Source: Rhodospirillales bacterium (GTDB lineage: Bacteria; Pseudomonadota; Alphaproteobacteria; Micavibrionales; UBA1664). From it: DNA of 64,000 nucleotides. Positions 1,096-42,289 of the stretch are shown here, piece by piece. The position numbers and the translations under genes are program-made. The notes beneath the pieces are model-generated. The model worked only from the letters and a program-made list of their open reading frames with translations. It ran no database searches and was not told the origin of the DNA. The stretch covers positions 849,656 through 913,655 of the forward strand of contig CP060260.1 of assembly GCA_023898805.1 (NCBI GenBank), in the 5' to 3' direction. Numbering within the stretch: the stretch's first letter is position 1; every line of letters begins with the position of its first letter.

Positions 1096-1162
1096 AAAAA
1101 TTCTCCGAAAAAATGATTCGCTAAATGCCCCTCTTTCCTGACACCTGTTAAATCGATACAGT

Positions 1163-1176
1163 TTGATTCAAATCAA
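1163..1176. promoter_or_regulatory. FNR/CRP-type box TTGATtcaaATCAA in the divergent narK-fnr intergenic region
   Basis: Perfect TTGAT-N4-ATCAA palindrome read directly. Its centre is about 74 nt upstream of the narK ATG and about 28 nt upstream of the regulator ATG. Confidence 0.7.
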
Positions 1177-1197
1177 GATGTTGGAAATTTTGTAAAA

Positions 1198-3197: not shown

Positions 3198-3226
3198 GCC
3201 TTATCACGATAACTTTTTCAGCTCTA

Positions 3227-3240
3227 TTGATCTGAATCAA
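3227..3240. promoter_or_regulatory. FNR/CRP-type box TTGATctgaATCAA between moeA and the porin gene
   Basis: Perfect TTGAT-N4-ATCAA palindrome read directly, centred about 70 nt upstream of the porin ATG. Confidence 0.7.
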
Positions 3241-3302
3241 TTTGAGGGATGCCTTTACCGAGGAAACTCCCCCCAGGTTAATTCAGAGCAAAGGCATATT
3301 TC

Positions 3303-4523: not shown

Positions 4524-4532
4524 GAGGACGAC

Positions 4533-4709
4533 ATGACCCAGAACGCAAAAAAAGATGAACCACAAAACCCTATGGCCATCTGGTGGAAAACTCTGGAGCA
4601 AACACAACAGATGATGCAAGACAACACGCGCAAGACGATGCTGCAAATCCTCGAAAACCAGAAGCGCATGGCCATGCTCTATTTCGGATCATCACAAAAA
4701 GAAGACTAA
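4533..4709 (+). CDS. Small hypothetical protein (58 aa), below the ORF-track length cutoff
   Basis: An AGGAGG Shine-Dalgarno (4522-4527) lies 5 nt before the ATG. The translation is MTQNAKKDEPQNPMAIWWKTLEQTQQMMQDNTRKTMLQILENQKRMAMLYFGSSQKED. A strong terminator follows directly. Confidence 0.45.
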   Translation: MTQNAKKDEPQNPMAIWWKTLEQTQQMMQDNTRKTMLQILENQKRMAMLYFGSSQKED

Positions 4710-4724
4710 AAGGGATTGATATCG

Positions 4725-4754
4725 AAAAGCCCCTCGTATGAGGGGCTTTTTTTG
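4725..4754 (+). terminator. Rho-independent terminator after the porin/small-ORF unit
   Basis: aaaagcccctc-gtat-gaggggctttt forms an 11-bp stem followed by a T-run. Confidence 0.8.
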
Positions 4755-4764
4755 TTGGCATTTT

Positions 4765-4778
4765 TTGACCCACATCAA
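4765..4778. promoter_or_regulatory. FNR-like box TTGACccacATCAA upstream of nrdD
   Basis: One mismatch to TTGAT-N4-ATCAA. It lies about 120 nt upstream of the nrdD ATG. Confidence 0.55.
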
Positions 4779-4784
4779 AAATAA

Positions 4785-4832
4785 ACACAATATCTAGTGC
4801 AGCATTACAAGTGTCACCACATCATCTTGTGG
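4785..4832. promoter_or_regulatory. Tandem NrdR boxes upstream of nrdDG
   Basis: Box 1, acacaatatctagtgc (4785-4800), matches the published NrdR consensus acaCwAtATaTwGtgt at 14 of 16 positions. Box 2, ccacatcatcttgtgg (4817-4832), matches at 11 of 16. The centres are 32 bp apart. Confidence 0.6.
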
Positions 4833-4892
4833 TTTCTTGCGGGTTTCCCCTCAACAAAAAAAACCAGTGTTTTCAAAAGATTGGAGCATTCC

Positions 4893-6878
4893 ATGCCTAC
4901 CGTACCGTCCGCCCTTCGCAAAGAATCATCCCCTGATAACCTCGCCACGCTCTTCACCGGCACCAAGGTGGATAGCAGCGCGGCCGTAGGCGAATACATC
5001 ACAGGAACGGACTGGCGAATCAACGCGAACGCCAACACGGGTTATTCCAACGCAGGCATGATCAACAACGTGGCAGGCAAGGTGATTGCCAATTTCTGGC
5101 TCGACTCGGTTTACAGCGCGGAAGAAGGTCTCGCCCACCGGCAGGCCGATATCCACATCCACGATCTCGATTGCCTGACGGGGTATTGCGCAGGTTGGTC
5201 ACTCCGCGCCCTTCTCAATGAAGGTTTCAATGGCGTAGGCGGGCGCGTGTCTTCCCGCCCGCCCCGCCATTTCCGCGAGGCGCTCGGGCAGATGAGCAAC
5301 TTTTTAGGCATCCTGCAATCCGAATGGGCAGGGGCGCAGGCATTCTCAAGCTTCGATACCTATCTCGCGCCTTACGTATTTCTGGATAACCTGTCTTTCA
5401 AGGATGTCAAAAAGGCCATCCGCCAGTTTGTTTACAATCTCAACGTGCCCGCGCGCTGGGGACAGTCGCCGTTTACGAACATCACGCTTGATATCACGGT
5501 GCCGGAGGATCTTCAAAACCAGTTCCCCGGCTGCCGAGACCAGCATTTGTTCAAAGGTATCAACAACACCGAAATGCTGGGCCGCGCACAATCGCGCGAC
5601 ATGGGCATCCGCTCCCTTGAAGATCTATGCTTCAAACATTTTGCGCCCGAGATGGAGATGATCAACATCGCCTACTACGAAGTGATGACGGAAGGGGATT
5701 CGACCGGCCAGCCCTTCACCTTTCCCATCCCGACCGTCAACATCACCGAGGATTTTAACTGGGATAGCAAGGTCGCCCAAGCCATTTTTGAAAACACGGC
5801 CAAAGTCGGCTCATCTTACTTCCAGAATTTTGTTGGCAGCCAATGGATGCGCAACGAAAAGGGCGAACGCGTCCGCAACCCCGAGGCATATTCCCCGGGT
5901 GCCGTGCGTTCCATGTGCTGCCGCCTTCAGCTTGATTTGCGCGAACTTTTGCGCCGTGGCAACGGGCTGTTTGGCTCCGCCGAAATGACAGGCTCACTCG
6001 GCGTTGTCACCATCAACATGGCAAGGCTTGGCCACCGTTTCAAAGGTGACAGGGAAGGCATGATGCGCGAGCTCGACAGGCTCATGGATATCTCGCGCTC
6101 CACGCTGGAAAAGAAACGCGGCTTCGTGCAAACCATGTACGATCGCGGCCTTTACCCCTACACCGCACGTTATTTGCCGTTCCTGCGCAACCACTTCAGC
6201 ACAATCGGCATCAACGGTATGAACGAAATGATCCGCAATTTCACAGGCGACGCTTACGACATCACCGATGATAGAGGCATTGATTTCGCGCTCGCCATTC
6301 TCGACCACATGCGCAATAAAATGCGTCAGTATCAGGAAGAAACAGGCAATCTCTACAACCTTGAGGCCACACCGGCGGAAGGCACGACTTACCGTTTTGC
6401 GAAGGAAGATAAAAGGCGTTTTCCTGACATCCTCCAGTCCGGCTCGGGCGAGAATATCTATTACACAAACTCGTCACAAATCCCCGTCGATCATACGGAT
6501 GACCCGTTCGAGGCGCTGGAGCTGCAAAACAAACTGCAATGCAAATATACGGGCGGCACGGTTCTGCATTTATATATGAGCGAAAAACTCTCCTGCGCAG
6601 ATGCCTGCCGTAGTTTTGTCAAAAAAGTCATTGAAAATTATCAGCTTCCATACATCACGGTCACACCGGTATTTTCGACCTGCGAAACACACGGCTACCT
6701 CAAGGGTGAACAACCTGAATGCCCGCACTGCCAGAAAAAGACCAATGTCTGGACGCGCGTCATGGGGTATTTCCGTCCCGTGGCCAGCTTCAACACCGGC
6801 AAAAAAGGCGAGCACGCCCAACGTAAACATTTCTGCGAGGATCGCATCCAATCCGCCGACCTGTTTTCGATGCAATGA
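4893..6878 (+). CDS. nrdD: Anaerobic ribonucleoside-triphosphate reductase (class III)
   Basis: The C-terminus has a Cys cluster (...CETHGYLKGEQPECPHC...) and the glycyl-radical motif TRVMGYFRPV. The start was moved to ATG 4893, which has GGAG 6 nt upstream. The track start at 4797 would overlap the NrdR boxes. Confidence 0.9.
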   Translation: MPTVPSALRKESSPDNLATLFTGTKVDSSAAVGEYITGTDWRINANANTGYSNAGMINNVAGKVIANFWLDSVYSAEEGLAHRQADIHIHDLDCLTGYCAGWSLRALLNEGFNGVGGRVSSRPPRHFREALGQMSNFLGILQSEWAGAQAFSSFDTYLAPYVFLDNLSFKDVKKAIRQFVYNLNVPARWGQSPFTNITLDITVPEDLQNQFPGCRDQHLFKGINNTEMLGRAQSRDMGIRSLEDLCFKHFAPEMEMINIAYYEVMTEGDSTGQPFTFPIPTVNITEDFNWDSKVAQAIFENTAKVGSSYFQNFVGSQWMRNEKGERVRNPEAYSPGAVRSMCCRLQLDLRELLRRGNGLFGSAEMTGSLGVVTINMARLGHRFKGDREGMMRELDRLMDISRSTLEKKRGFVQTMYDRGLYPYTARYLPFLRNHFSTIGINGMNEMIRNFTGDAYDITDDRGIDFALAILDHMRNKMRQYQEETGNLYNLEATPAEGTTYRFAKEDKRRFPDILQSGSGENIYYTNSSQIPVDHTDDPFEALELQNKLQCKYTGGTVLHLYMSEKLSCADACRSFVKKVIENYQLPYITVTPVFSTCETHGYLKGEQPECPHCQKKTNVWTRVMGYFRPVASFNTGKKGEHAQRKHFCEDRIQSADLFSMQ

Positions 6879-7591
6879 GCACGGTTCTACGCCATAAACC
6901 ACAAGGCATTACGTTGCCCGTTTACAACGTAACGCCATTTACCATGCTGGATTACCCTGGCAAAACCGCCTGCATTATTTGGTTTTCCGGTTGCAACATG
7001 CGCTGCCCGTATTGCCACAATCCGCAAATCGTCAAAGGCAAAGGCCGCGGTGATATTGCACAGGTCATGGATTTTTTAAGGCGGCGTCAGGGCCTTCTTG
7101 ATGGCGTTGTGCTCTCGGGCGGTGAATGTACGCTTTATCCTGACATGCCCGCGCTTGTGCGCGATATCAAGGCACTGGGCTACGCCGTCAAAATCGATAC
7201 CAACGGCACGCGCCCCGATGTGCTCCTGCCTTTATTGGATGCGAAGCTAATTGATTACATCGCGCTTGATTACAAAGCTCCACGTGCAAAATTCCATGCC
7301 ACAACGGGCATGAACCAGTTTGAGGTATTCTCAAAAACGCTTTCTTATCTCTGCCACGACGGTGTACCTTTTGAAGTCCGCACAACTATCCACTCTGATT
7401 TCCTGAACGAGAGTGACATCAACGCAATCATGGATGACCTCGCGGCACGCAAGTACCACGGTACCTACTATATCCAGAATTTCACTGGCACGGGCAGTCC
7501 CACATTAGCACCGCTTACAGCCCACAAACCGCTAGACTGGTCGGTCATCCATCCTAGAAACACCTTCAAACTGGAATTCAGAAATTTTTAG
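6875..7591 (+). CDS. nrdG: Anaerobic RNR activating protein (radical SAM)
   Basis: Carries the CNMRCPYCHN radical-SAM motif. Its ATG overlaps the nrdD stop (ATGA). Confidence 0.9.
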   Translation: MSTVLRHKPQGITLPVYNVTPFTMLDYPGKTACIIWFSGCNMRCPYCHNPQIVKGKGRGDIAQVMDFLRRRQGLLDGVVLSGGECTLYPDMPALVRDIKALGYAVKIDTNGTRPDVLLPLLDAKLIDYIALDYKAPRAKFHATTGMNQFEVFSKTLSYLCHDGVPFEVRTTIHSDFLNESDINAIMDDLAARKYHGTYYIQNFTGTGSPTLAPLTAHKPLDWSVIHPRNTFKLEFRNF

Positions 7592-7778
7592 CCTGCCCAG
7601 TTAACGTTTTCAGGATGGTCTTCGGCTCAAGATCAACAATATCGGCGATTTCCATCAGCTCTATAACGTCCAGGCGGCGTTCGCCGCCCTCCACTTTCGC
7701 CACAAAAGATTGAGGTTTGCCGATTCTTACAGCCAGTTCTTGCTGGGTCATCCAAGGTGAGGCAAAGGCTAGCGCCAT
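7578..7778 (-). pseudogene. XRE-family HTH regulator fragment (N-terminal helix missing)
   Basis: TQQELAVRIGKPQSFVAKVEGGERRLDVIELMEIADIV is the helix 2-5 part of an XRE HTH. Only about 9 unrelated codons precede it. It overlaps the recombinase remnant in antisense. Confidence 0.5.
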
Positions 7779-8796
7779 GCTTCAGGCCTGCATCCTGCGC
7801 AAAATGGCACGAGAAGGCGATGCCGAAATCCAAGACCTCGCCCCGCAGGATCAGGAAATCCTGGCGGAGTTTTTGAGCAAGATTTTAACCTACAAAGATG
7901 GCCGGACGGTTGGCGGTAAATCATTTTCGCGGGGTGCCTTGTACGCACTACTCTCAAACCCGATATATATCGGGCAGATCCGGCATAAGAACAAAACTTA
8001 TGATGGGCAGCACGAAGGCATTATTCCTCAGGATCTGTGGGCGGCAGTGCAGCAAAAGCTGAATGAACAGGCATCGATTTATAAAGGGCAGAAAATCTCC
8101 AGAGAGGTCAATTTACTCAAAGGCATTCTGTTCGATGCGCAAGGAACTCCTTATACGCCCGGATACACCGCCAAAGGCAAAAAGCAATACCGGTATTATG
8201 TCAGCCAGAATCTGATCCAGATGCGGGATCACCCGGATGGTTTACTGGGGAGACTTCCAGCACATGAAATTGAAGCAACAGTTGAAAGTGTCTTGCGGCA
8301 CAGTTTATGCAGCCGGTCCGGTGTCGTGGAATTGCTGGGGATCTGTCTGGATCGTGATATTGAAAGCGTTCAGAAGATTGTTGAAGGGCAAGCACTGCTC
8401 CAGATGCCTCGCTTTGTTCAAGGAATTACCCAGCGTATTACCGTTCAAGCCGAGAGCCTTGAGATCGAGGTGAATGTTCAAGAACTCTGCGCCGCACTTT
8501 CTCAAACCACCGAAACAAAAATCAGCTCACCAAAAGAAACCGCCCTTATCGTTGGCGCCTACAATACGCGGCGGGCTAAGAAGGGCGCACTCGTCATAGA
8601 ACCGGAAAAGCCTGATCGGGATATTTTTGATCTGCCGCCTGACCAGATTAAGAAACTGGTGCAGGGATTTATCTGGCGGGATGAGCATTTCCAAGGTCTT
8701 ACCATACGACAAATCGCCGAACGTGAAGGTCTCTCAGACTCTCATGTCGGCAAGCAGATCTTCGCCACATTCGAACTTGGCCAAATGGCCGCCTGA
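7717..8796 (+). pseudogene. Large serine recombinase remnant lacking the N-terminal resolvase catalytic domain
   Basis: The recombinase domain is present (GGKSFSRGALYALLSNPIYIGQIRHKNKTYDGQHEGIIPQDLW, LLKGILFDAQGTPYTPGYTAKGKKQYRYYVSQ). No Ser-containing resolvase domain lies upstream. It sits next to the tRNA 3' end. Confidence 0.65.
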
Positions 8797-8958
8797 TAAA
8801 TCCGTCGAACAGAAAATTGGCTATCAGAGAAAACCGAGGAGAATGCCCCGGTTTTTTTAATTCTCAGTGCTCGGCAGAAGCTAAGCCGCTCGAAAAGAGC
8901 GCGGAACTGCGGGATATTTGGGGAGTATTTCTCACCGTTCGGCAAACCGGTGACTAGA

Positions 8959-9033
8959 TGGCTGGGGCGCCAGGATTCGAACCTGGGAATGGCGGTACCA
9001 AAAACCGCTGCCTTACCGCTTGGCGACGCCCCA
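8959..9033 (-). tRNA. tRNA-Gln (anticodon UUG)
   Basis: The reverse complement is TGGGGCGTCGCCAAGCGGTAAGGCAGCGGTTTTTGGTACCGCCATTCCCAGGTTCGAATCCTGGCGCCCCAGCCA. It has a 7-bp acceptor stem with U1:A72 and an anticodon arm GCGGT/TTTTGGT/ACCGC. A T-arm GGTTCGAATCC and an encoded CCA are also present. Confidence 0.9.
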
Positions 9034-9276
9034 CCGGGGAAAACGGGGCAGACAATACCGGCCCCATGCGCCTTGCGCAAGCCGAAATATGAGCAGGCCA
9101 CGGCGCGCAAGCACTCTGGCAGAACCAAAGGGCAGGGCCGGCCAAGCCCTGTGGATAAATGCGGCGCTTTTTTGTGGCGCTATTTTACAAAATATGCAAA
9201 AACCCTTGGACCAGCCACGCAAGAAAATCGGACGTAACGACGTAACGACGTGATGACCACGAACGAGGGAAACACC

Positions 9277-11157
9277 ATGCGCCCCACGAACGCCGCGCCT
9301 GCGGCCAAGCCGGAATCGACACCCCGCGCCGCGACGGCCGCATCGCCGACACCGGCGGCCAACGCGCGACCCTTCCCGGTTTCCAACGCCAACATGGCCG
9401 CGACCGATCAGGTGCGCGCCGCGCTCGACACGCTGGGCATCAAACTGATCAAGTCCGAGGCCGAACGCGACGTCCTGAAAAAACTGGTCGAGGAAACCCG
9501 TTCGACCCAGACCCGGCTTGAACGCGAATTGCTGGAAAACCGCAAGGAGCTGGCGGAAACCCGCCGCAAGATGGAGGACCAGCGTCAGGATTCCGAACTC
9601 ACCCGCAACCGCCACGAGCGGCTGGAGGAAAAACTGCGCGAGGCGCAGGCAAACAATCTGAAGATCGCCCGCAAGATCGAGGCCGACGACCAAAAACGCG
9701 CCCGTATCCAGCGACGTATGGAGCGCCTTGAACGCGTGGCGCAGGAAGCGCAATCCGCACTGCAATCCCGCGCCATGGTGCTGCTGACCGATCAAAGCCT
9801 GGCGGAACAATCCGGCCTGCCGCGCATCGCCGCGTCCGGTGAAGTTTTGCCCGTCGCCGCGCCTGCGCGCACCGCGCACGCATCATCGTTGATTGGTTCC
9901 GGCACCGTCATCGATGCCGGAGAAACGGAAGAACTGCCGTGGTGGAAAAAACCGCTGAACCTGAACGCGTCCGCAGCGCTTGGCGCGCTGGTCTTCGCAC
10001 TCGGCCTTGGCTGGGTCATCTCGTACAACGTGAACGCGAGCCAGACCGCCGTCGCGGTGATGGCCGACGGCAGCCTTGCGCGCATCGACCTTAAAACCGG
10101 CACGCTGCAACCTTTGCAACTTAAACTCAAAACACTCGATCAATCGACCGCCGCACCCGTCGCGCGCGTCAGCACTGATGGTGCACCCTTGCCCGCATCG
10201 GCCAAACCCGACGATTCCGCCGTATCTGCCACCGCACCGGCCGCCGCGCCCGAACGCGATCCAAGCCTGACCGGCGCCCTCAAGGAGCTGGAGGACAAGG
10301 CCTATGCCGGCCAGCCCGAGGCCGAACACGATCTGGCCGCGATCTACACTGCCGGCTCCGGCGTGAAACAGGATTACACACGCGCCGCTTATTGGTTCCG
10401 TCAGGCGGCGGATGCCGGCATCGCCAACGCCGCGTACAATCTCGGCGTCCTCAACCATCAGGGTCTGGGTGTCGACAAGAACATCGACCGCGCACTCGAT
10501 TGGTACCGCATCGCCGCGCTCGAAGGCCACCCCGAGGCGCAATACAACCTCGGCATCGCCTATATCGAAGGCATCGGCACCAAATACAACCCGCAGCTTG
10601 CCGCCGGCTTCTTCCAGAAAGCCGCGCTCTCCGGCATTAACGAGGCCGCGTACAATCTCGGCCTGATCCTTGAAAACGGCCTGTTGGCCGAACCGAAACC
10701 GAATCAGGCGCTGATCTGGTATCGCGTCGGCGCGCAGGGCGGATCAACCGAGGCGCGCAACGCCCTCGACCAACTGGCCAGCCGTCTGGGCCTTTCGCCT
10801 GACAAGGCGGGCTTTTTGCCCGACGGCACCTCGCTTGCCAAACTGGTGCATAAACCTGAAAGCGCCCAACCCGGCAGCAATTCCGACGCGACGGCCGAAC
10901 TAGCGCGCCTGATGCCGGATCTGGCCGAGATGATTCCCGATACCGACCAGTTGATTACCGCGCAGGTACAAGAACAGCTGACCCGCCGCGACATCTATGA
11001 CGGGCCGGAGGACGGCGCCGCCAGCCCCAAGACCGCCGATGCGATCAAATCCTATGAACGTCGCAACGACATCAAGGTGGATGGAAAGGCCAACGCCGAT
11101 TTACTGATGAAAATGCTGCGTCAAAGCGTCGTCGAGGATTCGGCCAAAGCGAAATAA
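9277..11157 (+). CDS. PodJ-like architecture: coiled-coil, one TM segment, Sel1 repeats and a C-terminal peptidoglycan-binding domain
   Basis: The N-terminal part is charged heptad-rich (RLERELLENRKELAETRRKMEDQRQ...). A TM segment follows (ALGALVFALGLGWVISY). At least 4 Sel1 repeats are present (A.YNLG....G.GV..N...A..WY..AA). The C-terminus is PG_binding_1-like (DGPEDGAASPKTADAIKSYERRNDIKVDGKA). The start is uncertain: GTG 9250, ATG 9253 or ATG 9277, and the last has GAGGGA upstream. Confidence 0.7.
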   Translation: MRPTNAAPAAKPESTPRAATAASPTPAANARPFPVSNANMAATDQVRAALDTLGIKLIKSEAERDVLKKLVEETRSTQTRLERELLENRKELAETRRKMEDQRQDSELTRNRHERLEEKLREAQANNLKIARKIEADDQKRARIQRRMERLERVAQEAQSALQSRAMVLLTDQSLAEQSGLPRIAASGEVLPVAAPARTAHASSLIGSGTVIDAGETEELPWWKKPLNLNASAALGALVFALGLGWVISYNVNASQTAVAVMADGSLARIDLKTGTLQPLQLKLKTLDQSTAAPVARVSTDGAPLPASAKPDDSAVSATAPAAAPERDPSLTGALKELEDKAYAGQPEAEHDLAAIYTAGSGVKQDYTRAAYWFRQAADAGIANAAYNLGVLNHQGLGVDKNIDRALDWYRIAALEGHPEAQYNLGIAYIEGIGTKYNPQLAAGFFQKAALSGINEAAYNLGLILENGLLAEPKPNQALIWYRVGAQGGSTEARNALDQLASRLGLSPDKAGFLPDGTSLAKLVHKPESAQPGSNSDATAELARLMPDLAEMIPDTDQLITAQVQEQLTRRDIYDGPEDGAASPKTADAIKSYERRNDIKVDGKANADLLMKMLRQSVVEDSAKAK

Positions 11158-20287: not shown

Positions 20288-22114
20288 ATGTGTGGCATTG
20301 TTGGCATCCTTGGCGAAAAACAGGTAACTCCGCTTTTGGTCGAGGGTCTGCGCCGCCTCGAATATCGGGGTTACGACTCGGCGGGCATCGCGACGCTGAC
20401 CGACGGGCATATCGAACGCCGCCGCGCCGAAGGCAAACTTTCCAACCTTGAAACCCTGCTCGCGGCGGAACCGCTGGCCGGAATCGTGGGGATCGGCCAT
20501 ACGCGCTGGGCCACCCATGGCGGACCGTCCACTCGCAACGCCCACCCGCACGCGACCGACAAGGTCGCGGTGGTCCACAACGGCATCATCGAAAACTACC
20601 GCGAACTCAAGGCCGAACTGGAATCGCACCAGATCCGTTTTGAAACCGACACGGATACCGAGGTCGTGGCGCAACTGATCACCCATTACATGAATCAGGG
20701 TATGAGCGCGCAGGACGCGACGGACAAAGCGCTCGACCGGCTCGAAGGCGCTTATGCTCTCGCCATGATTTTTGCCGGCGAGCATGACCTGATGATCGGC
20801 GCGCGTCAGGGCACGCCATTGGCCGTCGGCTTCGGCGATGGCGAAATGTTCCTCGCTTCCGATTCCTACGCCTTGGCGCCGCTGACCAACCGCATCTGCT
20901 TTTTGGAAGACGGCGACCGCGTGATCATCACCCGTGCAGGCGCGCGCGTCTATGACCGTACGCGTGCGGACGTACGCCGCCAGATCCGTGTCACGGCCCA
21001 GTCCGGCGCGGCCACGGGCAAGGGTGATTACAAGCATTTCATGCTCAAGGAAATCTATGAGCAGCCGACTGTGATCGGCGACACGCTCAACTCCTTCATC
21101 AATCCGTCGACCGGCACGGTGGCGATGCCCGCGGGCGTGCTCGATATGGCTGACGCACCGCGCATCACCATGCTGGCCTGCGGCACGGCGTTTTATGCCT
21201 GCATGGTTGCCAAGTACTGGTTCGAGCAGATTGCCCGCATCCCGGTCGAAATCGACATCGCCTCGGAATTCCGTTACCGCGAGGCGCCGATGCCCAAGGG
21301 CGGCGGCGTGATCGTCGTCAGCCAGTCTGGCGAAACTCTCGATACGCTCGAAGCCATGCGCTATTGCCGCCGTCAGGGGCAAAAGGTGCTGTCCATCGTC
21401 AACACCATCGAAAGCACGATCGAACGCGAATCCGACACCGTGCTGCATACGCTGGCGGGACCTGAAATCGGCGTCGCCTCGACCAAGGCCTTCACCACCC
21501 AGTTGACCACGCTGGCCTGCATCGCGCTGGCCATCGCGGTCAAACGCGGCGCCATCGACCACGAACGTGAACGCGATTTGACCCGTGCTTTGCGCCATAT
21601 CCCGGCCTTGTGCGCGCGCATTCTCAACGCCGACGAGGCGATCGAAAAAGTCGCCAAGGATATCGCACTGGCCCGCGACGTGTTGTATCTGGGCCGGGGC
21701 GCGCTATACCCGCTGGCGCTTGAAGGCGCCCTCAAGCTCAAGGAAATCTCATATATCCACGCCGAAGGTTACGCTGCAGGTGAAATGAAGCACGGGCCGA
21801 TCGCGCTGATCGACGAACATGTGCCCGTGGTGGTGCTGGCGCCCTCCAACGACAACCTGTTTGAAAAGACCGCCTCGAACGTACAGGAAACTGTCGCGCG
21901 CGGTGGACAGGTCATGATGGTCAGCGATCGCGCGGGCATGGAAAAAATGTCCGGCGCCGTGCGCTGGCCGGTCGAGATGGAGGAGGTCCACCCCTTCACC
22001 GCCCCGGTTCTTTACGCGATCCCTGTGCAACTGCTGGCCTATCACGTGGCCATCGCCAAGGGCACGGACGTCGACCAACCGCGCAATCTGGCAAAATCCG
22101 TCACCGTTGAATAA
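20288..22114 (+). CDS. glmS: Glutamine--fructose-6-phosphate aminotransferase
   Basis: The start was moved to the MCGIVGILG N-terminal nucleophile. Two SIS domains follow and the C-terminus is KSVTVE. Confidence 0.95.
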   Translation: MCGIVGILGEKQVTPLLVEGLRRLEYRGYDSAGIATLTDGHIERRRAEGKLSNLETLLAAEPLAGIVGIGHTRWATHGGPSTRNAHPHATDKVAVVHNGIIENYRELKAELESHQIRFETDTDTEVVAQLITHYMNQGMSAQDATDKALDRLEGAYALAMIFAGEHDLMIGARQGTPLAVGFGDGEMFLASDSYALAPLTNRICFLEDGDRVIITRAGARVYDRTRADVRRQIRVTAQSGAATGKGDYKHFMLKEIYEQPTVIGDTLNSFINPSTGTVAMPAGVLDMADAPRITMLACGTAFYACMVAKYWFEQIARIPVEIDIASEFRYREAPMPKGGGVIVVSQSGETLDTLEAMRYCRRQGQKVLSIVNTIESTIERESDTVLHTLAGPEIGVASTKAFTTQLTTLACIALAIAVKRGAIDHERERDLTRALRHIPALCARILNADEAIEKVAKDIALARDVLYLGRGALYPLALEGALKLKEISYIHAEGYAAGEMKHGPIALIDEHVPVVVLAPSNDNLFEKTASNVQETVARGGQVMMVSDRAGMEKMSGAVRWPVEMEEVHPFTAPVLYAIPVQLLAYHVAIAKGTDVDQPRNLAKSVTVE

Positions 22115-37171: not shown

Positions 37172-38251
37172 ATGGCAAAGACGCAGCGCGTTCTGGGATT
37201 GATGAGCGGCACGTCGATGGACGGCATCGACGCCGCACTGCTGCACACCGACGGCATCGCGGCGGGCGAGGTGCTGGCCCGCGCCTTCACCCCCTACCCC
37301 GAAACCGTCCGCGCGGCGATCCGCGCCGTGCTGGGCAGGCCCCCGGAAAACGAGGCCGCCGCGATAGCCCAAACCCTCGTGACCGACTGGCATATAAACG
37401 CAGTCCGCGATTTCGGGCATGCCGGACAAATCGACCTGATTGCCTTTCACGGCCAGACCGTGTTCCACGACCCCGCCAACGCCCGCACATGGCAGATCGG
37501 CGACGGCCCGCGCCTTGCCGCCGCCACGGGCCTTCCGGTCATGTACGATTTTCGTTCGAACGACATGCGCCACGGGGGTCAGGGCGCACCGCTTCTGCCG
37601 CTGTACCACCGCGCGCTGGTGCGCAAGGCGGAGCTGGAGGAACCGGCCGCCGTCCTCAACCTAGGCGGCGTCGCCAACATCACCTGGATTGATGGCGAGG
37701 CGATTTACGCCTGCGACACCGGCCCGGCCAGCGCCCTGATCGACGACTGGATGCGGCGCGCGACCGGGGAATCGATGGACCGGAACGGCGAAACGGCCCT
37801 CAAGGGCGCGCCCGATCGCGCCCGCATCCAGAAATGGCTGGAAAACCCTTATTTCGCGCGCACCCTGCCCAAATCCCTCGACCGCGACGCCTTTGCATCC
37901 TGCCGCGTTGATGACCTTTCGCCCGAGGACGGCGCGGCCACGCTCGCCGCCTTCACGGTGGCCGGGGTTTTCGCGGCGCTCGACCGCCTGCCCGGCCCGA
38001 CCCGGCGGTTGCTCGTCTGCGGCGGCGGACGACACAACGCGGCCATCATGCGCGGCCTCGAAACCCGTCTGCCGGTGACCGACGCCGATACGCTGGGTTG
38101 GTCCGGCGATTTCATCGAGGCCGAAGGCTTCGCCTACCTCGCCGCCCGCGCCCGCGCGGGCCTGCCGCTGACCCTGCCCACCACCACCGGGTGCCTGCAA
38201 CCCGTTAGTGGCGGAATCCTCGTCGAACCTGATACCATAGCCGCCTCATGA
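37172..38251 (+). CDS. anmK: Anhydro-N-acetylmuramic acid kinase
   Basis: Has the N-terminal GLMSGTSMDGIDAAL motif and is of AnmK-like length. Confidence 0.85.
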   Translation: MAKTQRVLGLMSGTSMDGIDAALLHTDGIAAGEVLARAFTPYPETVRAAIRAVLGRPPENEAAAIAQTLVTDWHINAVRDFGHAGQIDLIAFHGQTVFHDPANARTWQIGDGPRLAAATGLPVMYDFRSNDMRHGGQGAPLLPLYHRALVRKAELEEPAAVLNLGGVANITWIDGEAIYACDTGPASALIDDWMRRATGESMDRNGETALKGAPDRARIQKWLENPYFARTLPKSLDRDAFASCRVDDLSPEDGAATLAAFTVAGVFAALDRLPGPTRRLLVCGGGRHNAAIMRGLETRLPVTDADTLGWSGDFIEAEGFAYLAARARAGLPLTLPTTTGCLQPVSGGILVEPDTIAAS

Positions 38252-40881
38252 CCCTGCCGACCGACGACCGCTTCGTCTACCAGACCAACCTGCTGAATAC
38301 GGCGGGCGGCATCGACATCGACGTCGTCCCGGCATGGACCGATTATACCGGCGCGGGCGTCAGCATCGCCTTGATTGACGATGGCTTCGACCTTGCCCAC
38401 CCTGACCTCGCGGGCCGGTTCGACCTTGCGGCCAGTTACGATTTCGCCGGGTCCGACCCGCTGCCGCAGGCGGAAACCGGCGACGACCACGGCACCGCCA
38501 TTGCCGGTATCGCGGCCGCCGCGCGCAACGGCGTGGGCATTGTCGGCGTCGCCTATGACGCGACGCTCGTGGGCCTGCGCGTCAGCTTTACCGCCGACGA
38601 TTCCACCGACCAGTTCACCGCCGCGATGACGCACATGGTGGATAACGACATCGCCAGCAATTCCTGGGGCTATGCCGGGGCCTTTGCCGACAATTACGCC
38701 GATGGGTGGCTGGACGGCCAGCGCGCGGCGATCGAGGACGCCGCCTTCAACGGGCGCGGCGGGTTGGGCACCGTCATCCTGTTCGCCGCCGGAAACGGCG
38801 GCAACAGCGCGGACCGCGTTGATTACCACAGTGTCACCGCCGACCCGCACGTCATCGCTGTGGGCGCGATGACCGCCACCGGCGCCGCCGCGTCTTTCAG
38901 CAACCCCGGCGCGGCACTGCTCGTTTCCGCCCCCGGGCAAAGCATCCCGACCGACGACGTATCCGGCGCGGGCGGCTATTTCCCGGGCGATTACGTCAGC
39001 CTTTCCGGCACCTCCGCCGCGACGCCGGAGGTTTCGGGAATCGTCGCCCTGATGCTGGAGGCGAACCCGAATCTCGGCTACCGCGACGTGCAGGAAATCC
39101 TCGCCTATTCCGCCCGCGCGACCGGCGCGGTCAGCGACTGGCAGACCAACGGCGCAGACAACTGGAACGGCACCGGCCTTCATTTTTCGCACAGCGTCGG
39201 CTTCGGACTGGTCGATGCCCTTGCCGCCGTACGCCTTGCCGAAACATGGACCACGACACATACGGAGGCCAATCTTCGTACCATCGACCAGACGTACACC
39301 GGCCCGGCCGTGCCGATCCCGGACGGAACGGGCCGCATTGATTCAACCATCACAATTTCCGGCGATTTGATTCTCGATCATGTGCAGGTAAGCGTCGACA
39401 TCACCCACGCCGCCGCCGCGCAACTTGACATCGCCTTGATCTCGCCCTCAGGCACGCGCTCGATATTGATGAGCGCGGCGCCCGTGACCGGCGCAATGTC
39501 GGAATTCACCTTTACCACCGTCGCCGACTGGGGCGAGCATGCCACGGGCGTTTGGACGCTGGAGGTCGCGGACCACACCGCCGGCACGGCGGGAATCCTG
39601 AACGGCTGGTCGATTAATCTTCAGGGCGATGCCGCAACCAACAATAATCTATATGTTTATACTGACGAAAACACCAACCCGATTGCGGTAACCGATTCCA
39701 ACGGCGGCACCGACACGATCAACGCGGCCGCGATCTCGCACGCGCTGACGCTCGACCTTGCCGCGCGCACCGGCATCGAAAACCTCGACACCGGCGACGG
39801 CAACGACACGGTATACGGCTCCGCGCTCGACAACGTCATCGACACCGGGCGCGGCAACGACACGATCTACGCTTCGGTGGGTTCGGACACCATCGACGGC
39901 GGCGCGGGAACAGACACGTACATCACCGAATCCGTATTCAACCACAATGTCGCGGTCGATGCGGACGGCACCGTCACCCTGACCAGTCTTGATACCGGCA
40001 TCGCCACCCATCTTTTAAACATCGAAAACTTTGTTTTCGCGGGTGTTTCCTACGACCTGCCCTCTCTGGCCGCCGCCTCGCGCAGCGGCGATCTGGTCGA
40101 CGTCATCTATTTCATCCACGGCGCGGCGGGCATCGCGGGAATGCATTCCGATACGCTTGGCCACACCGCCTACGAGGCCGGAACGCTGGGCGTCGGCGGC
40201 ACCGGCACCGTGCTGCTGGCCGACCGCGAGGGCAACCACCTGACCCTGACCAACAATGCGGGACAGGATCTTTCGGGCCTTTCCATGCGCATGGACGACG
40301 GTCTGGCGGTGACGTTGCACGGATTTATCGAAGTCACCGTAATCGCCGACGGCACCAGCGCGACCAGCGTCGATATCGGCGGCGGACAGCAGGGGTTCAT
40401 CCAGACCGGCGCGGGCGGCGACACGGTCAATTTTCTGGGCTTTCTGATCGACCCGCACATCCCCGCGCAGGATCGCACCCTGACCGCCAACACCAATGAC
40501 GGAAACGACCGCGTCACCGTCACCGATCGTTCGGGTTATATCGCCTATGACATCGACCTTGGTTCGGGCGACGACACGTTCACCGCCATCGGCACGCCCG
40601 GCGGCACGGTCCACGGCGGCGACGGTGCCGATACCTTTGCCTTTGGCGCGGGCGCGCAAAATGCGGTGATCGACGATTTCAACCCGCTGCTCGACCATCT
40701 CGACCTTTCAGCCCTGACCGCCGCGCATCAAGGCGCGATAGACGGTTTCCTGACCCTGACCACCAGCCAGAACGCGACCACGGTATCGGTCGGCGGCACG
40801 AACGTCGCGACGCTTGCGGGCACGGTCCTCGACCAGACCTTGCAGCATTACCTCGACACCGGCGTGGTCATTGTCGATTGA
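38248..40881 (+). CDS. Secreted subtilisin-like (S8) protease with proprotein-convertase P-domain and RTX-type Ca-binding repeats
   Basis: The catalytic triad contexts are IALIDDGFD, DDHGTAIAGIAAA and GTSAATPEVSGIVALM. The P-domain includes GVWTLEVADHTAGTAGILNGWSINLQG. GxGNDT/GGxGxD repeats follow, ending GGDGADTFAFG. There is no N-terminal signal peptide. Confidence 0.85.
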   Translation: MTLPTDDRFVYQTNLLNTAGGIDIDVVPAWTDYTGAGVSIALIDDGFDLAHPDLAGRFDLAASYDFAGSDPLPQAETGDDHGTAIAGIAAAARNGVGIVGVAYDATLVGLRVSFTADDSTDQFTAAMTHMVDNDIASNSWGYAGAFADNYADGWLDGQRAAIEDAAFNGRGGLGTVILFAAGNGGNSADRVDYHSVTADPHVIAVGAMTATGAAASFSNPGAALLVSAPGQSIPTDDVSGAGGYFPGDYVSLSGTSAATPEVSGIVALMLEANPNLGYRDVQEILAYSARATGAVSDWQTNGADNWNGTGLHFSHSVGFGLVDALAAVRLAETWTTTHTEANLRTIDQTYTGPAVPIPDGTGRIDSTITISGDLILDHVQVSVDITHAAAAQLDIALISPSGTRSILMSAAPVTGAMSEFTFTTVADWGEHATGVWTLEVADHTAGTAGILNGWSINLQGDAATNNNLYVYTDENTNPIAVTDSNGGTDTINAAAISHALTLDLAARTGIENLDTGDGNDTVYGSALDNVIDTGRGNDTIYASVGSDTIDGGAGTDTYITESVFNHNVAVDADGTVTLTSLDTGIATHLLNIENFVFAGVSYDLPSLAAASRSGDLVDVIYFIHGAAGIAGMHSDTLGHTAYEAGTLGVGGTGTVLLADREGNHLTLTNNAGQDLSGLSMRMDDGLAVTLHGFIEVTVIADGTSATSVDIGGGQQGFIQTGAGGDTVNFLGFLIDPHIPAQDRTLTANTNDGNDRVTVTDRSGYIAYDIDLGSGDDTFTAIGTPGGTVHGGDGADTFAFGAGAQNAVIDDFNPLLDHLDLSALTAAHQGAIDGFLTLTTSQNATTVSVGGTNVATLAGTVLDQTLQHYLDTGVVIVD

Positions 40882-41067
40882 GATGGATTTTACCAATCCC
40901 TCATGAAAAACCTTGACGCATCCCCTCTTGCACTGCTTCTCCAAGGCTGAACGGATGCCCAGAATGCGTACGTCTGAGATTATGGATGCTTTAGAGTATG
41001 ATTTTTACGTGAGCGATAGGTTAAATTCATACAGAGTCGCGCCACGCTTTATGCAGGTAATCAAAAA

Positions 41068-41790
41068 ATGGGGCTATTCCAGAAATTAGCAGCAGAGATC
41101 GACAAGAACTATGCGGTACTTGGCCATCAAAGTTGCTGGACGTTTTTGTATACGCCTCAAGAAACCTTCCGCACCAATCAAAAACTCGCTTTCATCGGCT
41201 TAAATCCCGGAGGCGCCGCCGATCAAAATTATAAAAATTTAATTTCCTGCGAGGATGGAAACGCATATCTCGTATCTGACTGGGAGAACGGATACCCACC
41301 AAGAAACAGCCCCCTACAATTACAGATCCAAGCACTTTACAAAGGAATTGCCAGCCATCGCCCACAAGAAGATTACGAAAAAATGATGAATGATTCGCTG
41401 GCCATGAATTTCATTCCCTATAGATCTCAAAGCTTTGCAAAACTCAAAAACAAGAACGAAACACTAAAATTTTGCCAAGGACTTTTGGAGGAAAGCTTAG
41501 AATACACTCAGCCGCAAGTAACAATCACCATGGATAAACTTGCATACGCTGCCGTGATAAAGGCGTTTAAAAAACTTTATCCAGACACCGAGATACAAAC
41601 CGAGCACGAACAAATAGGTTGGGGAAAAGTCGAATATGAAATCACCACGCTTTTGGATGCTCAGAAAAGACTTATAGTCAGGATACCGCACCTTTCTCGC
41701 TACAAAATCTTTAACTGTGAGAAATGCAAACCACAGATAAAAAGAATTACAAAAATCATCTCGGACAGCATCTCCAGAAACTGTCGCTAA
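41068..41790 (+). CDS. Orphan low-GC gene, candidate uracil-DNA-glycosylase-superfamily fold
   Basis: 240 aa. The motif order is AFIGLNPGG (aa 41-49), AMNFIPYRS (aa 112-120), VTITMDKLA, then RIPHLSRY (aa 205-212). This parallels the UDG-superfamily GxNPG ... NxxxxR ... HPS layout. Assigned by eye only. Confidence 0.4.
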   Translation: MGLFQKLAAEIDKNYAVLGHQSCWTFLYTPQETFRTNQKLAFIGLNPGGAADQNYKNLISCEDGNAYLVSDWENGYPPRNSPLQLQIQALYKGIASHRPQEDYEKMMNDSLAMNFIPYRSQSFAKLKNKNETLKFCQGLLEESLEYTQPQVTITMDKLAYAAVIKAFKKLYPDTEIQTEHEQIGWGKVEYEITTLLDAQKRLIVRIPHLSRYKIFNCEKCKPQIKRITKIISDSISRNCR

Positions 41791-41842
41791 AATTCGAATA
41801 AACTGAAAAGCTATGTCCAATGATTAGGGCCCGGACCCTACA

Positions 41843-42289
41843 TTACGCCTTGCGGCTCCAGCCGCTCGCATCCTGCTGCCAATACGACAATTCATGCCCG
41901 GCATCCTTGTAGCCGCGCCACAGACTGCGCGCGCCCTCGACCTGCGCCGCGTCATTCCCGTCCAGCATGAGGCAGCAAAGCGTGTACGCCTCAATTTCAT
42001 CCGGCGTACACCCTACGCCGAGGATCAGGGTTTTTGCGCCGTTGGGGTTGTCGTTCTCGGTGCTCAGCCATACCGGCTGACGATCCGCCGCCCCGTCCGC
42101 CGCAGAACCGTGTGGCAGGAACGCATCGGCCTTGAAAGTCCAAAGCGCGTTGTTCATCGCCTCGACCCGTGCGGCGTCCGGCAGGCGCACAACCACGCGC
42201 TGTCCGGCCTGCCACGCCTTGAACGCGAGCAGGGGTAGGGCATCCTCCTCCCGGCTGCGTTGCAGATGGTAAAAACGGATCTCGGTCAC
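41843..42289 (-). CDS. holC: DNA polymerase III subunit chi
   Basis: The GTG start at 42289 (VTEIRFYHL) lies 13 nt after the pepA stop, in the classical pepA-holC arrangement. The product is about 148 aa. Confidence 0.8.
   Translation of the reverse strand: MTEIRFYHLQRSREEDALPLLAFKAWQAGQRVVVRLPDAARVEAMNNALWTFKADAFLPHGSAADGAADRQPVWLSTENDNPNGAKTLILGVGCTPDEIEAYTLCCLMLDGNDAAQVEGARSLWRGYKDAGHELSYWQQDASGWSRKA

Follow-up and report, generated by a model that had tools for sequence, protein, structure and literature searches.

The islet and its gene

The 64-kb window (the whole stretch of 64,000 nucleotides that was analysed) contains a short low-GC islet at 40882..41842, to which no strand is assigned and which is read here as a foreign insert between the stop codon of an S8/RTX protease gene and the stop codon of holC. 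The upstream flank, which ends at 40881, encodes an 877-aa protein with Peptidase_S8, P_proprotein and HemolysinCabind domains, and the downstream flank is holC (DNA_pol3_chi) at 41843-42289 on the minus strand, followed by pepA and lptF/lptG; both neighbours are as described in an earlier note on this DNA. The GC content of the islet (961 nt) is 42.2 %, which puts a measured value on a drop to about 40 % that the earlier note had estimated by eye. Other 961-nt windows of the 64 kb have a mean of 59.8 % (sd 4.4, minimum 48.1 %), and the islet (z = -4.0) is the lowest-GC stretch of that length in the window, about 18 GC points below the rest. When GC is followed in 300-nt windows, its fraction is 0.41-0.45 across 40950-41850 and 0.60-0.71 on either side. 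Third codon positions follow the same pattern, with a GC3 of 45 % in the islet gene vs 81 % in the S8/RTX gene, 77 % in holC and 80 % in pepA.

The sole long ORF that fits the islet is the one convincing ORF of 240 aa picked out earlier. It lies at 41068..41790 on the plus strand, starts with ATG and encodes a UDG-superfamily protein of an uncharacterized family, based on the ORF, an AF2 model and Foldseek. Its product is identical to the NCBI entry 'hypothetical protein H6865_03915, Rhodospirillales bacterium MAG', and four independent assemblies, which represent the same strain, have 0 differences across the gene and its flanks. The gene is preceded by an AT-rich spacer of 186 nt (40882..41067, plus strand), the presumed promoter region, in which there is a single weak sigma-70-like site (40974-41002) that is not above shuffled expectation; neither a Shine-Dalgarno-like sequence nor a strong promoter is evident at the gene. 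A 58-aa ORF at 40913-41089, which overlaps the gene start, is probably spurious: Pfam does not match it, and nothing related to it lies upstream of any homologue. The islet shows no meaningful repeat at its ends, direct or inverted, and no terminator-like site, recombinase, tRNA or match to Rfam, and within 10 kb of this copy there is no defence or mobility gene, the surroundings consisting of housekeeping genes.

A foreign origin of the islet gene is indicated by its composition (a GC z-score of -4, and a GC3 of 45 % vs about 80 % nearby) as well as by the fact that a family member is present in 0 of 80 related holC loci, 65 of which keep the pepA-holC synteny. It is further indicated by the closest relatives being at most 49 % identical metagenomic singletons. 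The horizontal acquisition that had been suspected from the sequence thus gains from this evidence and also, as detailed below, from a family-wide GC deficit and cassette-like mobility. Taken jointly, the UDG fold of the protein and the horizontal origin of its gene are very nearly certain.

Fold and predicted active site

Direct annotation of the protein by PADLOC, NCBIfam and PHROGs gave no match, and the Pfam UDG model (PF03167) reaches 18.4 bits (E=0.0024), which is under the gathering cutoff of 24.3; the same model is matched by 54 of 77 relatives at E<=0.01, the best at 7.2e-11. No solved structure in the PDB is related to the family by sequence, the only phmmer matches of the protein there, to inositol-monophosphatase, having been dismissed as chance. 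The AF2 model has a pLDDT of 95.3 and a pTM of 0.92, and its best 50 Foldseek matches in the PDB are all UDG-superfamily enzymes (SMUG1, family-4 UDG, TDG/MUG, UdgX and family-5 UDG) at a probability of 1.00, and the model of a second family member, P0031, has the same set of PDB matches. Structure prediction therefore bears out the UDG-like alpha/beta fold that had been proposed, and the proposed UDG-type motif order holds as well, with N46-P47, N114 and H208 being invariant or at least 94 % conserved in the 77 relatives and lying at canonical positions. Placement of the protein in the UDG superfamily is accordingly supported by both predicted fold and motif order. All four segments that had been singled out by eye are present as read. 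In the model, GLN46PGG comes after strand 40-44, N114 ends strand 111-114, and PH208LS follows strand 202-205.

Motif 1 (AFIGLNPGG, residues 41-49, 41188..41214, plus strand) forms the loop after beta-1, and its N46 is the predicted water-positioning catalytic Asn. N46 and P47 are invariant (77/77), and G44, L45, G48 and G49 are 90-97 % conserved. The motif aligns with GEAPG of the family-4 UDG 4zbx and with GLNPG of the Brig1 family; the third residue of motif 1 is Asp in UDG family 1 and Asn in family 2 (PMC5387724). Between motifs 1 and 3 lies a family-specific insertion (residues 50-111, 41215..41400, plus strand), recognized from its conservation and its helices in the model (66-69, 82-95 and 103-109). 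Within it, G64, A66, Y67, W72, L83, Q84 and Q86 are invariant or near-invariant among the 77 relatives, W72 corresponds in the alignment to W111 of Brig1, itself nearly invariant, and the insertion as a whole is predicted to shape the base-binding pocket. Motif 3 (AMNFIPYRS, residues 112-120, 41401..41427, plus strand) stands at the end of beta-2 and contains N114, which is predicted to read the Watson-Crick face of the flipped base, a role of the motif-3 Asn that is documented for UDGs (PMC9796141, PMC5387724). N114 is conserved in 94 % of the 77 relatives (the rest have His), P117 in 99 %, R119 in 97 % and S120 in 97 %; it aligns with N82 of 4zbx and with E147 of Brig1, the latter being essential (PMC11078745).

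The next segment, VTITMDKLA (residues 151-159, 41518..41544, plus strand), covers core strand beta-3 and the first residues of the helix after it (DSSP on the model: strand 151-154, helix 157-170), and aligns with the matching strand of 4zbx and the Brig1 family. An invariant W185-G186 pair (41620..41625, plus strand) forms the tip of a beta-hairpin in the model (175-182 / 189-196), with W185 found in 77/77 relatives and G186 in 96 %; this hairpin is not mentioned in classical descriptions of UDGs. Motif 2 (RIPHLSRY, residues 205-212, 41680..41703, plus strand) comes after the last core strand. P207-H208-L209-S210 is invariant in 77/77 relatives and R211 is 92 % conserved. H208 is the predicted leaving-group-stabilizing His, as documented for the motif-2 His of UDGs (PMC5387724, PMC9796141), and R211 (or L209) is predicted by analogy to plug the gap left by the flipped base. 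The Asn/Asn/His set that results is exactly that expected of an enzyme that repairs uracil-type lesions (SMUG1, UNG, family 4), which counts against a role in defence.

The ORF is intact and keeps every invariant and catalytic residue, but the protein deviates at two positions that are strongly conserved among the 77 relatives, E70 in the insertion (94 % of the family; Ser here) and W140 (Leu here). Such changes could mean altered or weakened function. Both are common to the window protein and its nearest relative, P0002, and for that reason are taken as a trait of the subclade, not as decay.

Relationship to characterized UDG families

SMUG1 (family 3) provides the best Foldseek match of the model (1oe5, E=1.4e-6, TM 0.45-0.54) and has in common with the family the pairing of a motif-1 Asn with a motif-2 His, the counterparts of which, N46 and H208, are invariant here; this is a mechanistic resemblance, not membership. 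That pairing is absent from UDG families 2, 4, 5 and 6 (PMC5387724). No sequence similarity to SMUG1 was found by phmmer or hmmsearch vs the PDB at E<=10, and identity to the family in structural alignments is 12-17 %. Several features also set the two apart. Motif 2 of SMUG1 is H-P-S-P-R-N and that of the family is P-H-L-S-R-Y/F; the insertion between motifs 1 and 3 is about 25 residues larger in the family and highly conserved; and the family has an extra beta-hairpin with the invariant W-G, as well as N- and C-terminal helices. SMUG1 as the closest family was downgraded, since the P0031 model ranks the family-4 UDG 4zbx above it, and proximity to SMUG1 is thus not robust. The likeness to Mug and SMUG1 that the earlier note had drawn therefore stands in part: its reading of motif 1 is correct and the motif is conserved, but fold comparison does not robustly single out SMUG1 or Mug as the nearest family.

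MUG/TDG (family 2) has a G-I-N-P-G-type motif 1 with the catalytic Asn, as the family does, and contributes many structures to the best fold matches of the model (E 2e-5 to 5e-4). No sequence similarity between the two was detected, and family 2 lacks the motif-2 His (PMC5387724) that is invariant here. The family-4 UDG 4zbx is the only PDB sequence with a profile match to the family (E=0.61), a match in which motif 1 and the N-x-x-x-x-R motif 3 are collinear, and family-4 UDGs (UDGa) have a motif-3 Asn and a motif-2 His, as does the window-protein family. In family 4 and UdgX, however, motif 1 is G-E-(A/G/Q)-P-G, without a catalytic Asn (PMC5387724), vs G-L-N-P-G here. An Fe-S cluster is present in the family-4 enzyme 4ZBY (PMC11078745); the alignment of the window-protein family has no conserved Cys column (maximum 39 %), and the UdgX-type KRRIH loop is absent from the family. 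UDG families 2, 3 and 4 are all at about the same distance from the window-protein family, and it is a distinct, so far uncharacterized family within the UDG superfamily.

Relationship to anti-phage glycosylases

Brig1 is an anti-phage alpha-glucosyl-5hmC DNA glycosylase that acts as a single-gene defence with a UDG fold (PMC11078745). Brig1 resembles the family in its UDG fold and in being encoded by a stand-alone gene of about 240-260 aa. The two also have in common G-L-N-P-G, an (N/E)-x-x-P-x-x-S motif and a Trp that is conserved in the insertion, and each has a sporadic distribution, frequently with defence or mobile genes nearby. Moreover, 4ZBY, the best structural match of Brig1 (PMC11078745), is also the best match of one family member (P0031). 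In a profile-profile comparison (hhalign), the family and the Brig1 family align over 123 collinear columns, motifs included, at E=8e-5 and a probability of 61 %. Nevertheless, pairwise identity is 11-15 %, BLASTP gives E=0.094 over a stretch of 10 residues, and no sequence is common to the match lists that sequence searches gave for the two families. The family is related to Brig1 only remotely. Differences extend to the active site, where the base-reading residue is Glu in Brig1 (E147, essential; PMC11078745) and N114 in the window-protein family (94 % Asn, 6 % His), and where Brig1 has L-P-S-G-Q, with no His, in place of the invariant P-H-L-S-R. In addition, Brig1 homologues are mostly actinobacterial (PMC11078745), whereas the window-protein family is mostly alphaproteobacterial.

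Brig2 is a UDG-like single-gene defence, encoded in integrons and directed against modified-thymidine phages (bioRxiv 10.1101/2025.10.29.685425). It has >500 PSI-BLAST homologues, among which Pseudomonadota dominate and 274 are from Bacillota, is <=20 % identical to Brig1, occurs close to mobile elements in A/T-rich DNA of recent acquisition, and is one of 11 distinct UDG-like clusters in integrons (bioRxiv 10.1101/2025.10.29.685425). The window-protein family occupies the same A/T-rich mobile setting, in that the gene has less GC than the flanking DNA at 23 of 26 loci and integrases, transposases or a plasmid occur among them, an ecological resemblance to Brig2, which was compared by description only. 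The many Bacillota homologues of Brig2 are not evident in the family. Brig3 was set aside as a relative, its fold being described as AAG-like, not UDG-like.

Distribution and mobility of the family

The gene had been called an orphan, a label that does not survive sensitive searching: the family has at least 584 clusters at 50 % identity among 1.84 billion representatives. The closest non-identical relative of the window protein is only 40-49 % identical. Named members are almost all from Alphaproteobacteria, with a few from Deltaproteobacteria and Cyanobacteria, and many carry the NCBI name 'uracil-DNA glycosylase family protein'. One member is fused to HTH_3. Other extensions in the family match nothing in Pfam and do not resemble the extensions of the Brig1 family, and the C-terminal extension of P0031 is folded with low confidence. 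An all-against-all ORF comparison of 20 loci yielded no conserved partner gene, only the gene itself being common, and small ORFs that lie upstream of or overlap the start were rejected as partners, since they are unrelated from locus to locus. Homologues therefore lack any conserved neighbour, including the conserved non-DNA-related context that would have spoken against a glycosylase-like role.

Several observations bear on how the gene spreads. Its GC content is below that of the flanks in 23 of 26 family loci, by a mean of 4.6 points, and integrases or transposases lie near it in several. A cassette of 760-805 bp that is 93-96 % identical recurs in Stappiaceae in three settings that are otherwise unrelated, a plasmid among them, and one copy of the gene is on a conjugative-type plasmid region. 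The family thus moves between genomes as a single-gene cassette of about 0.8 kb. A phage or plasmid origin is not supported, as there was no match in 50,697 phage genomes or in PHROGs and only 2 matches in 72,556 plasmids; a BFVD search returned generic UDG folds only. Faster evolution than the flanks was considered as a family trait and rejected, since it holds in one syntenic set (40-48 % identity for the gene vs 70-92 % for the flanks) and fails in others (98.7 % vs 75-96 % in another set).

The neighbourhoods of family members are mixed. The gene directly adjoins Hachiman (HamA/HamB, E to 1e-270) at one locus (L006) and IetA/IetS at a second (L012), has a type I R-M methyltransferase nearby at a third (L013) and McrBC with a transposase at a fourth (L032), and elsewhere HEPN, NACHT, HNH, PLD-nuclease or YhcG-nuclease genes are near a family member. 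A strong known defence system lies within 3-5 kb at about 4 of 31 loci, and when candidate nucleases and NTPases are added, about 9 of 31 loci are near defence-type genes, both being raw counts. Other relatives are found in metabolic operons (P0025 and P0128) or adjoin ribosomal-protein, secY, adk or enolase genes. Defence genes next to homologues, for which the earlier note had proposed to look, are present at the loci beside Hachiman, IetAS, type I R-M and McrBC, which strengthen the speculative suggestion of an anti-phage role, but not at those among housekeeping genes, including the window copy.

Possible functions

The explanation judged best, by analogy with Brig1 and Brig2 and at about an even chance of being right, is that the islet is a horizontally acquired cassette encoding an active monofunctional glycosylase that would be a stand-alone defence enzyme of the Brig1/Brig2 kind. 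That the protein is an active glycosylase is quite probable; that defence is the function for which it has been selected is evenly balanced. By analogy with solved UDGs, the enzyme would bind DNA and flip a pyrimidine from the double helix into a pocket formed by the motif-1 loop (G44-L-N46-P-G-G) and insertion residues Y67, W72, L83, Q84 and Q86. There, N114 would read the base at its N3/O4 face, implying that the base is of the uracil/thymine type and not cytosine, H208 would stabilize O2 of the departing base, and N46 would position the attacking water, with R211 or L209 filling the helix gap and an abasic site as the product. The substrate would then belong to the class of uracil-type or modified pyrimidines. 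In a defence role, the base removed would be a non-canonical pyrimidine (uracil, 5-hydroxymethyluracil or hypermodified thymine) in the DNA of an invading phage or plasmid, whose replication the abasic sites would block.

The chief alternative, though a somewhat unlikely one, is accessory base-excision repair, in which the gene would be a horizontally spread back-up glycosylase for uracil, 5-hydroxymethyluracil or deaminated bases that guards the host genome and functions like SMUG1, family-4 UDG or MUG, the defence neighbours merely reflecting variable genome regions. It agrees with the canonical residues of uracil-excising UDGs (motif-1 Asn, motif-3 Asn and motif-2 His), with repair enzymes being the best structural matches, with the NCBI name given to many relatives, and with the position of the window copy next to a replication gene, holC, and other housekeeping genes. 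Several relatives are, furthermore, in tight housekeeping or metabolic operons, and in Antarctobacter the gene is stably syntenic and 98.7 % conserved. However, repair does not readily account for a family so rare and sporadic, for the GC deficit and single-gene movement, or for the several genomes in which the gene directly adjoins Hachiman, Iet, R-M or McrBC; housekeeping glycosylases are near mobile elements in only 0.03-8 % of windows, vs 41 % for Brig2 (bioRxiv 10.1101/2025.10.29.685425, Table S8). The large conserved pocket insertion also suggests a substrate other than plain uracil.

Membership in the already named Brig2 family, with the same mechanism against modified-thymidine phages, is unlikely, even though the description of Brig2 as UDG-like, with >500 homologues led by Pseudomonadota and A/T-rich acquired regions near mobile elements, matches the window-protein family. 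Its low identity to Brig1 (<=20 %) is likewise consistent, and an Asn as the reader of the base (N114) suits a target of the uracil/thymine type. What tells against membership is that Brig2 has 274 Bacillota homologues vs the almost all-alphaproteobacterial named members here, and that it is just one of the 11 UDG-like integron clusters in the preprint. It is improbable that the gene instead serves the mobile cassette or element itself, through base removal from incoming element DNA, anti-restriction or non-catalytic DNA binding, or that it is a decaying neutral passenger. Movement of a cassette of about 0.8 kb, the copy on a conjugative-type plasmid region and the use of UDG-fold domains by phages as well, fused to DNA polymerases, speak for these possibilities, as do the E70S and W140L changes and the lack of an evident Shine-Dalgarno-like sequence or strong promoter. 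Yet the ORF is intact and retains its invariant and catalytic residues, P0002 has both changes too, phage matches are absent and plasmid matches are 2 in 72,556, and an active site so strongly conserved across the family points to a catalytic function maintained by selection.

The gene may be a founding example of a new group of stand-alone anti-phage glycosylases distinct from Brig1, Brig2 (compared by description only) and Brig3, a suggestion that is tentative and on the doubtful side. Such a group would combine a Brig1-like scaffold with a SMUG1-like Asn/Asn/His site, would excise uracil-type or hypermodified-thymine bases, and would have spread as a promoter-plus-gene cassette of about 0.8-1 kb without a recombinase of its own.

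Significance

The recognition of DNA glycosylases as single-gene anti-phage effectors is recent (Brig1 in 2024, Dag and Brig2 in 2025, Brig3 in 2026), and each new glycosylase defence family has exposed another modified base that bacteria recognize. Because the combination of catalytic residues is unlike that of Brig1, a different substrate is predicted here, namely uracil or modified thymine and not modified cytosine. Were the protein a defence enzyme, it would add a new specificity to glycosylase-based immunity and possibly provide a reagent for modified-base mapping; were it a repair enzyme, it would add one more family to the UDGs, marked by a motif 2 (PHLSR) and a pocket insertion of its own. 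As a mode of gene transfer, the movement of a bare single-gene cassette with no associated recombinase is of interest as well.

Family membership and predicted fold

Taken alone, the 240-aa product of the islet gene (here the window protein) gives a sub-threshold match to the Pfam UDG model (PF03167; E=0.0024, 18.4 bits, cutoff 24.3), no match in PADLOC, NCBIfam or PHROGs, and nothing relevant in a phmmer comparison with the PDB. NCBI lists an identical protein, from a Rhodospirillales MAG, under the name 'hypothetical protein H6865_03915', and the gene and its flanks show 0 nucleotide differences across four independent assemblies. The earlier note had regarded the gene as an orphan, a description that does not hold: a word-indexed search returned eight relatives, a profile of those eight returned 418, and an exhaustive phmmer search of 1.84 billion cluster representatives returned at least 584 at E<=1e-3, including 338 at E<=1e-10. 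With best non-identical matches at 40–43 % identity, and 49 % for the nearest relative (P0002), the window protein is a divergent representative of a family that is moderate in size and sparsely sampled. Many alphaproteobacterial members are named 'uracil-DNA glycosylase family protein' at NCBI.

The note's reading of the protein as a member of the UDG superfamily is supported both by remote homology, since 54 of the 77 aligned family members match Pfam UDG (best E=7e-11), and by predicted structure. An AlphaFold2 model of the window protein built on that 77-sequence alignment has a pLDDT of 95.3 and a pTM of 0.92, and its best 50 Foldseek matches in the PDB all belong to the superfamily (SMUG1, family-4 UDG, TDG/MUG, UdgX and family 5), each with probability 1.00, at modest TM-scores (0.40–0.54) and 10–18 % identity. 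A model of a second relative, P0031, recovers the same set, with the family-4 structures 4zbx/4zby rather than SMUG1 in first place; hence, the fold is secure, whereas assignment to a single classical family is not.

Some members are longer. P0262 carries an N-terminal Xre-type HTH_3 domain, P0030, P0031 and P0044 have a Pro-rich disordered linker followed by a C-terminal domain of ~80 aa with a low-confidence fold, and P0134 and P0145 have other types of extension without a Pfam match. A clear member also lies on plasmid pSYLB of Synechocystis sp. PCC 6714 (L027:9001-9630; record 21439-22068), with 30 % identity over 95 % of the query (E=3e-26); as the PLSDB table has no gene at this stretch, it may be an unannotated gene.

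Active site and predicted chemistry

All four motifs quoted in the earlier note are present, namely AFIGLNPGG (41-49), AMNFIPYRS (112-120), VTITMDKLA (151-159) and RIPHLSRY (205-212), and the UDG-like motif order that it proposed is borne out by the model. The GLN46PGG loop follows strand 40-44, at the position of UDG motif 1; strand 111-114 ends at N114, at the position of motif 3; and PH208LSR follows strand 202-205, at the position of motif 2. N46, N114 and H208 are 94–100 % conserved, N114 being the 94 % case, with His in the remainder of the 77 sequences. Invariant in that alignment are N46, P47, W72, L83, Q84, W185 and P207-H208-L209-S210, and the near-invariant columns include G44, G48, G49, G64, A66, Y67, Q86, P117, R119, S120 and R211. 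When the family profile is aligned with family-4 4zbx, GLNPG falls on GEAPG and N114 on N82. The window protein retains every invariant and catalytic residue, and departs from the family at E70 (Ser), W140 (Leu), W123 (Phe), F118 (Tyr), G23 (Cys) and R25 (Thr); the changes at E70 and W140 are shared with P0002 and so look like a subclade trait, not decay.

In classical UDGs, motif 1 has at its third position the residue that activates or positions water, which is Asp in family 1 and Asn in family 2. The motif-3 Asn touches N3/O4 of uracil, and the motif-2 His stabilizes O2 of the leaving base; families 4–6 are without the motif-1 Asp/Asn, and families 2 and 6 without the motif-2 His (PMC5387724, PMC9796141). 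The present family has all three residues, which among classical families is the SMUG1 combination. Features that set it apart from all classical families lie in the register of motif 2 (P-H-L-S-R-Y/F), in a highly conserved segment of ~60 residues between motifs 1 and 3, in a beta-hairpin with an invariant W-G, and in the absence of conserved cysteines and thus of an Fe-S cluster.

For the window protein, fold and conservation are established, catalysis and substrate predicted. It is most likely an active monofunctional DNA glycosylase that would flip a pyrimidine into the pocket that the motif-1 loop forms with the conserved insertion, with N114 reading the N3/O4 face of the flipped base, N46 positioning water, H208 stabilizing the leaving base, and R211 or L209 plugging the gap in the helix, an abasic site being the product. 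Asn at position 114 predicts a uracil- or thymine-type base instead of cytosine, and the large conserved insertion suggests an actual substrate bulkier than plain uracil.

The islet and mobility of the family gene

GC falls to 0.41–0.45 over 40950–41850 of the window against 0.60–0.71 on both sides, confirming the low-GC islet, and the only convincing ORF between the gene for an 877-aa S8/RTX protease (38248-40881, +) and holC (41843-42289, −) is indeed the family gene (41068-41790, +), present as one copy in the window. The 961-nt islet (40882-41842) has 42.2 % GC, compared with a mean of 59.8 % (sd 4.4) for all other same-size windows and 48.1 % for the next lowest (z=−4.0), and GC at third codon positions is 45 % in the family gene vs 77–81 % in three neighbouring genes. 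Deviations so far beyond chance are a signature of foreign DNA, and they support the horizontal origin suggested earlier. The islet is without a terminator-like site, meaningful flanking repeats, an Rfam match, a tRNA or a mobility gene; one weak promoter-like site (40974-41002) does not exceed shuffled expectation. A 58-aa ORF overlapping the start of the family gene is probably spurious, having no Pfam match and no counterpart at any homologous locus.

Among 80 loci with a holC relative (45–54 % identical), none has a family member at this site, and pepA–holC synteny is preserved in 65. The protease, an S8 subtilase with a P-domain and RTX (HemolysinCabind) repeats, likewise has no counterpart beside holC in any of the 80, so that the whole stretch beyond holC, and not the islet alone, may be lineage-specific.

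Of 26 loci across the family, 23 have a gene with lower GC than its flanks (mean −4.6 points, up to −15). In a comparison of 20 loci from different genomes, no gene other than the family's own was shared. The clearest evidence of single-gene cassette mobility comes from three replicons of Stappiaceae, i.e. Labrenzia sp. OB1 (L011:3930-4734), Stappia sp. BW2 (L012:7885-8657) and a Roseibium aggregatum plasmid (L028:8885-9689), which share a 760–805-bp segment at 93–96 % identity, consisting of the family gene with about 115 bp upstream and 60–100 bp downstream, and have nothing in common in the surrounding 12–18 kb. Two of these replicons have short repeats around it: a 12-nt inverted repeat in L011 (GGGCCGACATTC / GAATGTCGGCCC), and GGCCCAGAGC on both sides in L028. 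Plasmid copies of the gene number only two, and no phage copies were found.

Where the gene occupies a shared site, its divergence relative to its flanks is mixed. In three Rhodobacterales genomes (L003, L004 and L009, around 7000-9400), between a dihydropyrimidinase/hydantoinase-like gene and an ABC ATPase, the family proteins are 40–48 % identical and the flanking proteins 70–92 %, reflecting either allele replacement or fast evolution. This pattern does not recur at a second syntenic site (family gene 65 %, flanks 61–97 %) or a third (98.7 %, flanks 75–96 %).

Neighbourhoods and possible biological role

Four loci have strong known defence systems within 1–3 kb of the family gene. The Novosphingobium locus (L006) has Hachiman and the Stappia locus (L012) IetA/IetS; a Maricaulaceae MAG (L013) has a type I R-M methyltransferase, and L032 has McrBC together with a transposase. 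Candidate defence or mobile neighbours at further loci comprise HEPN with NOV_C; NACHT, integrase and T4SS genes on the R. aggregatum plasmid; HNH; a PLD nuclease alongside numerous Xre-type regulators; an integrase together with an overlapping YhcG-type nuclease; and an integrase block. Two loci have an operon-like arrangement in which an upstream gene, of 141 aa in L026 (9592-10017) and 238 aa in L033 (8288-9004), overlaps the family gene's start; the two are not related to one another, and neither matches Pfam.

Rare, sporadic, GC-poor, partnerless, cassette-mobile and repeatedly beside Hachiman, Iet, R-M and McrBC, the family resembles reported defence glycosylases in its ecology much more than housekeeping ones; mobile elements occur in 41 % of windows around the anti-phage glycosylase Brig2, compared with 0.03–8 % for Fpg, EndoIII, UNG, Tag, MutY and AlkA (bioRxiv 10.1101/2025.10.29.685425). 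The anti-phage role raised in the earlier note is strengthened as a possibility. Defence genes adjoin some relatives; several copies, the window's included, sit among housekeeping or metabolic genes, and the context of the window copy supports neither defence nor repair. Defence is given about an even chance of being the biological role and accessory DNA repair a distinctly smaller one, with element-serving or non-catalytic roles taking up what is left.

Comparison with anti-phage glycosylases

The Brig1 sequence used here comes from the supplement to PMC11078745 and was validated by the published residue numbers Y121, N145 and E147. Brig1 and the family both carry G-L-N-P-G and an (N/E)-x-x-P-x-x-S motif. 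BLASTP gives no significant match; the family profile matches the single Brig1 sequence at E=0.003 (probability 10 %), and a 39-member Brig1-family profile at E=8e-5 (probability 61 %) over 123 collinear columns, pairing N114 with E147 (essential in Brig1), P117 with P150, S120 with S153, and W72 with W111. The alignment does not reach motif 2, which in Brig1 reads L-P-S-G-Q and lacks a His, and searches with the two families return no hits in common. By these alignments, the family and Brig1 are remote cousins whose predicted chemistry differs. Some Brig1-family proteins (P0298, P0300) have a C-terminal DUF4268 fusion (E=6.6e-9), nothing like which occurs among the extensions of the present family.

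Brig2 is UDG-like, acts against phages with 5-(2-aminoethyl)uracil or 5-acetylaminomethyl-uracil DNA, has >500 homologues, and is located in A/T-rich mobile regions (bioRxiv 10.1101/2025.10.29.685425). Compared by description, not sequence, it is the best ecological and mechanistic analogue. Brig3 was also considered as a relative, and is ruled out by its AAG-like fold. A literature search found no paper pairing the GLNPG signature with a glycosylase. Unless it is the Brig2 family itself, this is a distinct, uncharacterized family of the UDG superfamily. After Brig1, Brig2 and Brig3, such a glycosylase would not astonish a specialist; the family is nonetheless a candidate that can be cleanly tested, differing from Brig1 in predicted substrate class and transferred in a single-gene mode.

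A lower-GC block elsewhere in the window

Positions 1-9033 form a broad block of lower GC (0.48–0.50 in 961-nt windows), with genes for a Crp-like regulator (1198-1977), MoeA (1965-3197, −), a porin-like protein (3303-4523), the anaerobic ribonucleotide reductase NrdD (4797-6878), its radical-SAM activase (6875-7591) and a Recombinase-domain protein (7717-8796). The block ends at a tRNA-Gln gene (8959-9033, −), and looks like a tRNA-associated genomic island.
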